Origin: a virus
Virus record (IMG/VR): IMGVR_UViG_3300042013_000056
Location: 64,001 to 128,000 of that record
DNA length: 64,000 nucleotides
Reading direction: 5' to 3' (one strand)
Shown here piece after piece: positions 58,626 through 60,921 of this stretch (the first letter of the stretch is position 1; each line of letters opens with the position of its first letter). The notes below the pieces were generated by a model. That model saw only the letters and a program-made list of their open reading frames with translations. It did no database searches and was not told the DNA's origin. A program made the position numbers and the translations under genes.

Positions 58626-59009
58626 TTAGTGTGAGTTGACAAGAATCTTCAACACATCACGCGCTTTTTTGTATTCACCCAGCTTGATCAAACGGGCTGC
58701 TGTTCGTTCAAGTTCAACGATTGCAGCATCCCTTGGGGTTTCCACCGGCTCGATATTCGCAATCAGTGTCGGTGTACCCAGCTTGATCATGACGTTGCTA
58801 GTGAGGAAACGAAATTTAATATCCGACTGAGAATCAAGCACCAAGTATGACGCTCGACGACCGTTCAGTTCGTAGGTCAGCCAATCGGCTACATCTTTTG
58901 ATTCTTTCAGACTACATCCGGTTTGTTCCCGGAAATCTTTGATCCAATTGATTTTACGATCCGCTACGAACAAGCCGGTTGGGCCGAATGTGGAAACCTT
59001 AAATTTCAT
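58626..59009 (-). CDS. protein with ribosomal bL12 CTD-like segment
   Basis: KINWIKDFREQTGCSLKESKDVAD resembles KIxVIKxVRExTGLGLKEAKDLVE. Confidence 0.55.
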   Translation of the reverse strand: MKFKVSTFGPTGLFVADRKINWIKDFREQTGCSLKESKDVADWLTYELNGRRASYLVLDSQSDIKFRFLTSNVMIKLGTPTLIANIEPVETPRDAAIVELERTAARLIKLGEYKKARDVLKILVNSH

Positions 59010-59420: not shown

Positions 59421-59753
59421 TTATAGACGTTCGAGGAAAATTTCTTCCTGATGCCTATGCAGACCATCCGTGTATAAATCAGCAAGCTCCTTTCTCAATG
59501 CGACTCGCAGCACGATATCTTTCGACGTGCCAACAATTGCATATGCAGCCCGCGACTTTTGATCAGCGGTCAGCTTGTTACCACGAATGAATTGCAGTTT
59601 GATACATTCCATATTCGGAAAGTATTTTTCAACGATCCATTCCATCAAACTTCGACTGAATGAAACGCGATGCAATTTGTTGGTTGCTGGGTCAAAGACA
59701 CCATAAACCAGATCGGAGGATTTGCAGTTACAACTAATGTTCTACACTTTCAT
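59421..59753 (-). CDS. 110-codon gene with in-frame TAG at codon 4 (amber read-through candidate or pseudogene)
   Basis: TAAGGT-7nt-ATG AAA GTG TAG AAC ATT..., in frame with the track ORF 59421-59675. Confidence 0.7.
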
Positions 59754-59771
59754 CGGTATTACCTTATTTAG

Positions 59772-60029
59772 TTACCATCTTGAATATGCAAGTTCACATG
59801 ATTGCGACCCTGCAACTAAGCGTTGATTTTTAATCAACACACAAATATCGGCTCTGGTGAACTTGTACGGCAAGATAGGTGATGACATATGGTCAGGTCG
59901 GTGGACCCACATTTCAACCATGTCAGAATCAACCGTATGCCACGACAGTTCACGCACACTACCATTGATAAGAAACATACCATTACAACGTCGCAACAGT
60001 ATGTCTATCAGTTCATTCATCGGGATCAT
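59772..60029 (-). CDS. hypothetical protein
   Basis: ATGA coupling to the endonuclease gene. Confidence 0.6.
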   Translation of the reverse strand: MIPMNELIDILLRRCNGMFLINGSVRELSWHTVDSDMVEMWVHRPDHMSSPILPYKFTRADICVLIKNQRLVAGSQSCELAYSRW

Positions 60030-60694
60030 TGAATTACCATCTTTCGCCCAAGTACCCACCCAGACGGCTCATATTCACCGAGTGTTGCTTTCGGTATCTT
60101 TTTATTGCCTAGGGTTGGGTGTGTTATCCAACAAGTTCCATATTGACTATTATCGGATGGCTTAGTATGTCTCGCACGCGCTTTTTCAGAAATCAACCGT
60201 TTGGTTTCTTCACGATGTGTTTTACCAGTCCAGTCATAGTCAATCTTCTGCGTATCACCAACATGGCGGAGTTTCTTTGCTTCTCGGAATCTTTCTTTAT
60301 TTGCGTCCGTGCTAGACCTAGCTCTGATCACTTTGGTCACAGCACCCCGATACTCAGGGTTTTCCCAATTCCGTTTAGCAATCTCCGATGACTGCCCACC
60401 TTCACCACCAAGCTTTAAATTCAAGCATTGTGGATCGGTTAACGTTTCTGGGTTGACTAGCTCTGATTCTCTCAAAGCCAATTCATCCCTTGATTCATGA
60501 TATTCCAAAATCTCAACACTATGGTTTTCCAGCCCATGTTTTCGAATCGAATATCGCAATCGTTTACCAGACCCAACATAACCATCGTTTAAATCGTCGG
60601 TTGAGTGCATACCGATGTAATATCGGTTTGATACAAGACATGTGGTCTTGTAGATGTAGTGAAATTTTCGTTTCTCTACTCGAACGTAAGTCAT
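60026..60694 (-). mobile_element. free-standing GIY-YIG homing endonuclease (Seg-like) with NUMOD3-like motif
   Basis: HYIYKTT...YYIGMH...YVGSG...LESEL; GKTHREETKRLIS; in the tRNA region like T4 segB. Confidence 0.88.
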
Positions 60695-60702
60695 TTTTGC
60701 AT

Positions 60703-60736
60703 ACCTGTATTTTGTTCATGAACACAGGTATTTATA
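60703..60736 (-). promoter_or_regulatory. perfect T4 late promoter TATAAATA overlapping an RBS-sequestering hairpin
   Basis: ATACCTGT...ACAGGTAT, with AGGT SD in the 3' arm. Confidence 0.75.
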
Positions 60737-60761
60737 TCAATTGATATGCAAAAATGGTCAA

Positions 60762-60837
60762 TGGTGCAGCCAACGGGACTCGAACCCGTGCTTGGAGAAT
60801 TTAGAGTTCCCTGCCTTGCCAACTTGGCTATGGCTGC
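60762..60837 (-). tRNA. amber suppressor tRNA (anticodon CUA)
   Basis: 76-nt canonical cloverleaf; anticodon arm GGGAA-CTCTAAA-TTCTC; TTCGAGT T-loop; A73; CCA. Confidence 0.9.
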
Positions 60838-60844
60838 TTTAATT

Positions 60845-60921
60845 TGGTGTGGCTGGTGGGAGTCGAACCCAACATCACCGGTGTCACAAACCAGTATTCT
60901 AACCATTAAACTACAACCACC
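60845..60921 (-). tRNA. tRNA-His(GUG) with encoded G-1
   Basis: loop TTGTGAC, GTTCGACTC, CCA. Confidence 0.9.

Follow-up and report, generated by a model that had tools for sequence, protein, structure and literature searches.

The stretch of DNA analysed here (the window, 64,000 nucleotides) corresponds to bases 64001-128000 of a 182,859-bp phage genome (IMG/VR record IMGVR_UViG_3300042013_000056; 44.9% GC, 32 tRNA genes). Towards its end, on the minus strand, lie the gene for a tRNA of the amber-suppressor type, with the anticodon CUA (60762..60837), and, about 1 kb downstream on the same strand, a small gene whose fourth codon is an in-frame TAG (59744-59742). An earlier note, made from the sequence alone, had proposed that the two constitute a conditional read-through switch or, alternatively, an early stage of TAG capture. 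Here, the tRNA, the small gene (hereafter the gated gene, the TAG being its gate) and their relatives in other phages were compared, and the comparison favours the first of these proposals.

The CUA tRNA was called by ARAGORN as a gene of 76 nt (anticodon CTA) and matches the Rfam tRNA family (RF00005) with 64.9 bits (E 4e-13; cut-off 29 bits), the top score among four tRNAs nearby; the description of 60762-60837 as a canonical 76-nt tRNA with U33 and the anticodon CUA is thus correct. The tRNA has a 7-bp acceptor stem, a 5-bp anticodon stem, a 5-nt variable loop, A73 and an encoded CCA; as expected of a suppressor, its 7-nt anticodon loop (C-U-CUA-A-A, presumably the same as that of supF) carries U33 and a purine at position 37. 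ARAGORN's label for the gene, tRNA-Pyl, is the name which the program gives to every CUA anticodon, and the shape typical of tRNA-Pyl is absent: the anticodon stem has five and not six base pairs, the variable loop five and not three nucleotides, and the D-loop contains GG. No pylS or pylBCD genes were noticed in the 183-kb genome, in which no search aimed at them was made. A tRNA-His(GUG) gene, also called by ARAGORN, lies 7 nt upstream on the same strand (60845..60920), and both tRNAs are probably contained in one precursor; the same His-CUA pairing is seen at three other loci (L003, L006 and L011). The supposition that a promoter behind tRNA-His drives the CUA tRNA found no backing, as the minus strand showed no site resembling a sigma-70 promoter. 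When 19 CUA tRNAs from equivalent loci were aligned, compensatory changes were seen in 17 of the 20 stem pairs, and U33-CUA-A37 was invariant. To judge by the tRNA models and this covariation, the CUA tRNA is real and under selection. That it is charged and suppresses UAG we infer.

The gated gene was delimited by direct reading of the minus strand. An AAGGT Shine-Dalgarno (SD) sequence at 59765-59761 is followed, after a spacing of 7 nt, by the leader ATG AAA GTG and the gate (59742..59753; ATG at 59753-59751), and then by 106 codons and a TAA (59421..59741; TAA at 59423-59421), so that the whole arrangement of SD, ATG AAA GTG TAG and 106 open codons pointed out in the earlier note is indeed present at 59753-59421. 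The list of open reading frames (ORFs) made with the standard bacterial code (code 11) contains, as was also pointed out there, only a fragment that starts with TTG (84 aa, 59421-59675).

A search of a phage collection with the window locus for near-identical DNA returned zero matches, and a search in a more distant mode led to relatives in the genus Otagovirus. The nearest cultured relatives are the Pseudomonas phages Milchi and Astolliot, with about 70% DNA identity across the gated gene. Both have ATG, two codons and TAG, followed by the same conserved residues, and in both a CUA tRNA, labelled 'suppressor tRNA' in the Milchi record and tRNA-Leu in that of Astolliot, is found about 360 nt upstream; the annotated coding sequence is in each a truncated piece of 75 aa. 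The same layout was found in five IMG/VR contigs and in five more assemblies of this close clade, in which the leader ahead of the TAG reads M-K-V, M-K-E, M-K-M, M-E-M or M-N, and all 18 close-clade proteins present in a collection of 5.8 billion proteins are truncated, at assorted internal starts. Neither a sense codon in place of the TAG nor further lesions, as would be expected of a pseudogene, were found in the relatives. For the 27 codons after the gate, dN was 0.08 and dS 1.9, giving a ratio of 0.04 (pairwise averages, with synonymous sites saturated); the next 33 codons are less constrained (dN/dS 0.19 as against 0.04), and no part of the protein is conserved better than these 27. In most relatives the 27 post-gate codons lie upstream of any ATG, GTG or TTG, and strong purifying selection upstream of any usual start argues that this stretch is translated. 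In the tabulated loci, moreover, the interval from the gate to the first conserved codons was found to contain no ATG, GTG or TTG with an SD in front of it.

Homologues with 33-50% identity were detected by tblastn in Klebsiella phages (Stephanstirmvirinae) and in the Alishewanella phage Slickus01. The Klebsiella genes, in phages KP13-26 and phi1_175008, read GGAG, 7 nt, ATG TCA TAG (M-S-TAG), and the gene is unannotated in three of the four records; in Slickus01 the TAG is at codon 6. An exhaustive HMMER search yielded 54 representative family clusters. Those 'full-length' cluster members that were looked up translate only when TAG is read as Q, and their N-terminal Q is therefore the amber codon. 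A further 39 loci came from scans of IMG/VR and of 241 million metagenome records, made with a sub-alignment. A TAG gate at codon 2-11, preceded by a good SD, is present in 32 of the tabulated loci. The gate is kept in family proteins down to about 30% identity, from phages of Pseudomonas, Klebsiella and Alishewanella as well as from IMG/VR and metagenome contigs, and leaders elsewhere in the family include M-N-E, M-S and M-T, again with the TAG retained. The base after the TAG is A in 27 of the 32 loci and G in the other five, and is a pyrimidine in none (0/32). A purine in this position is said, after work by Bossi in 1983 and by Miller and Albertini in 1983, to provide the context that suppressor tRNAs read best. 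A search of 185,579 prokaryote species genomes found no relatives, and the family therefore appears to be restricted to phages.

In every tabulated TAG-gated locus with enough flanking sequence, a CUA tRNA is present within a range of -4.2 kb to +0.34 kb around the gene, which it often abuts. The question whether TAG co-occurs with the CUA tRNA in relatives can thus be answered in the affirmative, the two being co-conserved across very distant phages. In the Klebsiella-type loci (L009:2975-3360, L010:2981-3366, L016:702-1087 and L103-L110) the gated ORF even reaches into the 5' portion of the CUA tRNA gene; in KP13-26 (L009), phi1_175008 (L010) and L103-L110 its stop codon is a TAG inside the tRNA D-arm, with a TAA two codons on. 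Because the gated ORF ends inside the tRNA, processing by RNase P would remove the stop codon of the mRNA. The family gene is always found in or beside tRNA clusters.

The gate codon also appears to change together with the suppressor anticodon. In one member (L034), ATG and three codons are followed by TGA and the conserved Cys motif, and a UCA tRNA, canonical and not of the Sec type, lies 3 kb downstream; another (L033) has an in-frame TGA and a UCA tRNA in the same genome, in a distant tRNA cluster; in a third (L024), codon 10 is TGA, and the contig is too short to tell whether a tRNA accompanies it. The first two cases support covariation of the gate codon with the anticodon, TGA being found with UCA.

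A second position for the gate was observed in three members, in which an in-frame TAG falls in the loop after the first helix, at about residue 45 (L026:1416-1721, L123:2226-2531 and L129:1876-2094). It is the sole gate in L026 and L129, the latter with a CUA tRNA 1.2 kb upstream, and is additional to an N-terminal TAG in L123. At another locus (L020:730-2037), a tRNA cluster contains a TROVE (Ro60-like) gene, with an ungated family member and its CUA tRNA 2 kb downstream.

Gating by TAG seems to be confined to this one gene. Whole genomes were scanned for a signature in which an SD and an ATG are followed by at most 12 codons, a TAG and 70 or more open codons, and in which no further start with an SD follows closely. 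In the 182,859-bp genome the scan returned the gated gene and one ordinary gene of 853 codons, which has a start 12 codons beyond the TAG; Milchi and a 381-kb jumbo phage from IMG/VR each yielded the homologue as the sole match. The same scan with TGA or TAA gave one to four chance matches per genome, and those inspected look non-coding. The gated gene is thus the only convincing SD-ATG-TAG gate in each of the three genomes. The scan replaced a genome-wide blastp comparison of TAG-spanning frames with two relatives, which was swamped by conserved non-coding frames. A 447-codon candidate read-through ORF (genome 11234-12577) was rejected because it is the antisense shadow cast by genes on the minus strand and matches no PHROG, and a 1038-aa match (P0019) because it is a tandem-repeat artefact. 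The view that this is not a code-15 phage, expressed in the earlier note, agrees with these data: rather than many genes with an in-frame TAG, this genome, Milchi and the jumbo phage have one convincing gated gene each, and TAG, the rarest stop in the window's genome, has not been lost as a terminator, since it ends 22 of 274 crude ORF calls. Coding density under code 11 is high in the family loci tested, which argues that these loci are not recoded wholesale.

The product of the gated gene was modelled with AlphaFold2. With an alignment of 48 sequences, a pLDDT of 92.4 and a pTM of 0.80 were obtained (single-sequence model, pLDDT 48), and the model predicts two tandem beta-beta-alpha-beta units preceded by five disordered residues immediately after the gate. 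The family conserves two Cys residues near the N-terminus, the motif H-R-x-T/S-F-S, a Tyr, an L-R pair and, late in the chain, an Arg. Scans of Pfam, PHROGs and NCBIfam and a profile search of the PDB, with the protein or the alignment, gave zero matches. Searches with the model likewise found no relative, either with Foldseek against the PDB (best E 0.16), in a wide search with VIA-align (best Z 4.1, partial) or in the ESM Atlas (TM at most 0.44 by shape, at most 0.85 by features). The gated product would therefore be an orphan protein with a confident model and no known fold. A complex prediction for the protein with Pseudomonas RF1 scored 0.00, a result that counts neither way.

A different kind of lock is suggested by four members. 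In three high-GC members (L119:7955-8379, L124:250-976 and L125:540-958), the single SD-ATG lies in another frame than the conserved ORF, whose frame is regained if a conserved C-A-U-U is taken as a four-base codon; in L033:5960-7266, one of the members with an in-frame TGA, the same holds for G-A-U-U. Adjacent to these genes is an unusual tRNA, called 'tRNA-Ile(aat)', whose 9-nt anticodon loop contains U-AAUG-A (L119, L124 and L125) or U-AAUC-A (L033), in each case the exact complement. Two single-protein scans for further frame-shifted members found none. The tRNA with the 9-nt loop and the adjoining gene are a candidate for a natural quadruplet-decoding tRNA and its target. On a tentative reading, the orphan family may quite generally accompany non-standard decoders in large phages, the lock on the gene depending on the special tRNA that each phage carries: UAG with CUA in most lineages, UGA with UCA (L034 and L033), perhaps UAA (L028), or, in high-GC members, a four-base codon. 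If so, phages would have evolved natural orthogonal tRNA/codon pairs, quadruplet decoding included, for a one-gene switch, and the four-base versions would, as far as the literature showed, provide the first natural examples in viruses of a quadruplet tRNA paired with its target.

Other features surround the pair in the window, all on the minus strand. Between the CUA tRNA and the gated gene lies a gene for a GIY-YIG homing endonuclease (60026..60694; PHROG 314, E 8e-38). It is absent from this place in Milchi and Astolliot, in which only the 360 nt mentioned above separate the tRNA from the gene, and it is an insertion that stands outside the tRNA/gene module. The second ORF of the interval (59772..60029; about 85 aa) is a small orphan kept only in the close clade, with zero Pfam or PHROG matches. 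Ahead of the leader, a CTAAATA motif (59765-59771) adjoins the SD, the two together occupying 59761..59771; the motif stands about 11 nt before the ATG and resembles a T4-type late promoter. It also occurs 6-14 nt before tRNA-Tyr, tRNA-Ala and tRNA-Cys (genome 134524, 129991 and 122629, minus strand). We rejected it as a promoter, as the 7-mer is not enriched genome-wide (13 occurrences on the minus strand, with about 11 expected). Two genes past the gated gene, a 127-aa ORF (58626-59009) weakly resembles, in Pfam, the C-terminal domain of ribosomal protein L7/L12 (E 0.0026, which does not pass the cut-off). Outside the window, the genome encodes a PTH2-like peptidyl-tRNA hydrolase (G000:C1:8268-8672, minus strand; E 1e-30) without a stop-codon gate.

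Taken together, these comparisons of sequence suggest that the CUA tRNA and the small gene are probably a dedicated pair of suppressor and gated gene in standard-code phages. The conditional read-through switch proposed at the outset is supported by the co-conservation of TAG and CUA tRNA, by purifying selection after the TAG and by the covariation of gate and anticodon. Ribosomes would start at the SD-preceded ATG, since the spacing of the SD fits this codon, would read two sense codons and would then reach the UAG. There, the RF1 of the host would release a tripeptide unless the charged phage tRNA inserted an amino acid, in which case a protein of 110 residues would be made. The yield of protein would roughly follow the degree to which the suppressor is produced, matured and charged and prevails over RF1. 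The UAG codon would thereby act as a translational gate or sensor, in a gene that host machinery alone could not translate. The leader is short and differs among relatives, and disorder is predicted for it; the identity of the inserted residue is therefore probably irrelevant, and what selection keeps would be the stop itself.

Several observations weigh against such a dedicated pair. The complete genomes of Slickus01 and of the 381-kb jumbo phage are TAG-gated and have no canonical CUA tRNA, so that a search for TAG without the tRNA did bring up two cases; an odd tRNA-like element bearing CUA is, however, found near the gene in each. In Slickus01 the element (L008:2847-2918) lies 24 nt before the gene and has a 7-bp acceptor stem, a T-arm, an ACCA end, no D-arm and an 8-nt loop (C-C-C-C-U-A-A-C) which contains CUA; it was missed by both ARAGORN and Rfam. 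In the jumbo phage, U-CUA-G is contained in the 14-nt anticodon loop of a tRNA-like gene (G002:C1:370349-370429), and the family member (L032), gated by TAG at codon 2, is 5 kb away. In one further member (L028), TAA takes the place of the TAG seen in its relatives L117 and L121, and no UUA tRNA was found on its 34-kb fragment. Some members are ungated, whether they lie beside a CUA tRNA (L020/L021 and L022) or have none in the available DNA (L027, L120 and L126). In addition, an amino-acid identity comparison showed no clear paralogue of the CUA tRNA among the 31 other tRNAs of the phage, and its identity elements (A73 and G1-C72) are ambiguous. TAG ends about 8% of the ORFs in the genome, and a strong suppressor would lengthen those proteins. 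Finally, the loci are phylogenetically non-independent, and counts of them overstate the number of independent events.

Among the alternatives, the one that fares best holds that the main job of the tRNA lies elsewhere, for example in read-through of TAG stops of the host or the phage, in insurance against nonsense mutations or in the replacement of tRNAs cut by host defences, with the gated gene as a passenger reporter. Phage tRNA sets are thought to counter tRNA-cleaving defences; this phage carries 32 tRNAs, and the ungated L020 and L022 do coexist with CUA tRNAs. A job elsewhere, however, fails to explain why a single orphan family has been gated repeatedly and no other gene has, and it leaves unaccounted for both the gating by TAG, by TGA and possibly by TAA and four-base codons, at two positions, and the tight linkage, which extends to overlap with the tRNA gene. 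We regard this explanation as improbable.

That ATG-x-x-TAG is a separate mini-ORF of three codons, with translation of the protein beginning beyond the TAG, either through re-initiation or from a start codon of non-canonical type, and with the tRNA unrelated, is distinctly improbable. Very short upstream ORFs with coupled restarts do exist in bacteria, and an ATT is found two codons after the TAG in the window and after the TAA of L028. The codons that follow the gate differ, however, among the relatives (AAC ATT, AAA ATC, AAA GTA, AAA GTT, ACT AAT, GTT TGT and GTA TGT), so that no start of any kind is conserved. The SD, moreover, is spaced for the ATG, the gate becomes TGA where the tRNA is UCA, and a purine always follows the TAG, all of which speak against a mini-ORF.

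We consider it very improbable that the locus represents a transitional stage of TAG reassignment, in which a suppressor has been acquired and TAG is just entering genes on the way to code 15. Such a path has been proposed, and standard-code relatives of recoded phages already carry suppressor tRNAs (Borges et al., bioRxiv 10.1101/2021.08.26.457843); the rarity of TAG as a stop in the window's genome, at 22 of 274 ORF calls, would also fit. Against it, the same single gene is gated in phages whose synonymous sites are saturated and whose proteins are about 30% identical, no second gated gene was found in the window's genome, in Milchi or in the jumbo phage, and the position just after the start is kept, which fits regulation and not drift. 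The early stage of TAG capture envisaged in the earlier note is thus unsupported: the one-gene arrangement appears to be old and has not spread in the three genomes scanned. A pseudogene, or a TAG arising from an assembly or sequencing error, would account for the truncation of the gene by gene callers, and is effectively refuted by the comparative data, with the TAG in more than 30 independently assembled loci, no other lesions, a dN/dS of 0.04 and a pLDDT of 92.

As to the purpose that a dedicated suppressor and gated gene would serve, two proposals may be made. By analogy with prfB (RF2), the protein may act back on the suppressor, on termination or on tRNA metabolism, a feedback that we favour tentatively and at somewhat less than even confidence; the alternative, that the gate sets the time or a threshold for a protein whose function is unrelated, seems possible, if rather unlikely. 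The lean towards feedback comes from the ungated members that adjoin CUA tRNAs and from the residence of the family in tRNA clusters; it is weakened by the ungated members without a CUA tRNA. If the product does act back on suppression or termination, a new kind of decoding control during infection would have been found. Phage suppressor tRNAs are known mainly from wholesale-recoded genomes; in standard-code phages, a pairing kept across very distant phages gives the CUA tRNA a concrete putative target that can be tested in cultured phages. The gated gene is systematically truncated or missed by current annotation pipelines, and natural tRNA/codon pairs of this type may serve as parts for genetic-code engineering.

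Full-text literature searches yielded no description of a single conserved gene gated by a phage's own suppressor. The nearest known systems are the recoded phages, in which TAG is read as Gln ('code 15') or TGA as Trp, as in crAss-like, Lak, Jade and Agate phages. Stop-codon-recoded phages with suppressor tRNAs of their own were reportedly described by Ivanova and co-workers in 2014. As proposed here, a phage suppressor tRNA makes in-frame stops readable in a standard-code host, with delayed or conditional expression as the proposed use. In those phages, however, tens to hundreds of genes are recoded, the stop is lost as a terminator and the hosts are gut anaerobes, whereas in the present case a single orphan gene is gated within its first codons, TAG still terminates and the hosts are Proteobacteria. 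The recoded phages carry suppressor tRNAs, and those of the Jade group have a 'code change module' beside recoded genes (Borges et al., bioRxiv 10.1101/2021.08.26.457843). Strong comparative evidence points to a one-tRNA, one-codon, one-gene switch in standard-code phages, which would represent a variant of phage stop-codon recoding. The gene prfB, which codes for RF2 and has an in-frame UGA at codon 26, shares with the gated family a conserved early in-frame stop, which in prfB makes the yield depend on termination versus alternative decoding and would do so in the gated family; it differs in that a +1 frameshift is used, that no special tRNA is needed and that the product itself reads the stop, whereas here a cognate tRNA would read it. 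Expression conditional on a CUA tRNA is also the principle of laboratory amber systems, such as amber mutants of T4 and lambda grown on supE or supF hosts, and of biocontainment by orthogonal tRNAs and amber codons. Those systems are artificial or mutational, whereas the arrangement described here is natural and appears to be kept by selection, with the tRNA and its putative target side by side.

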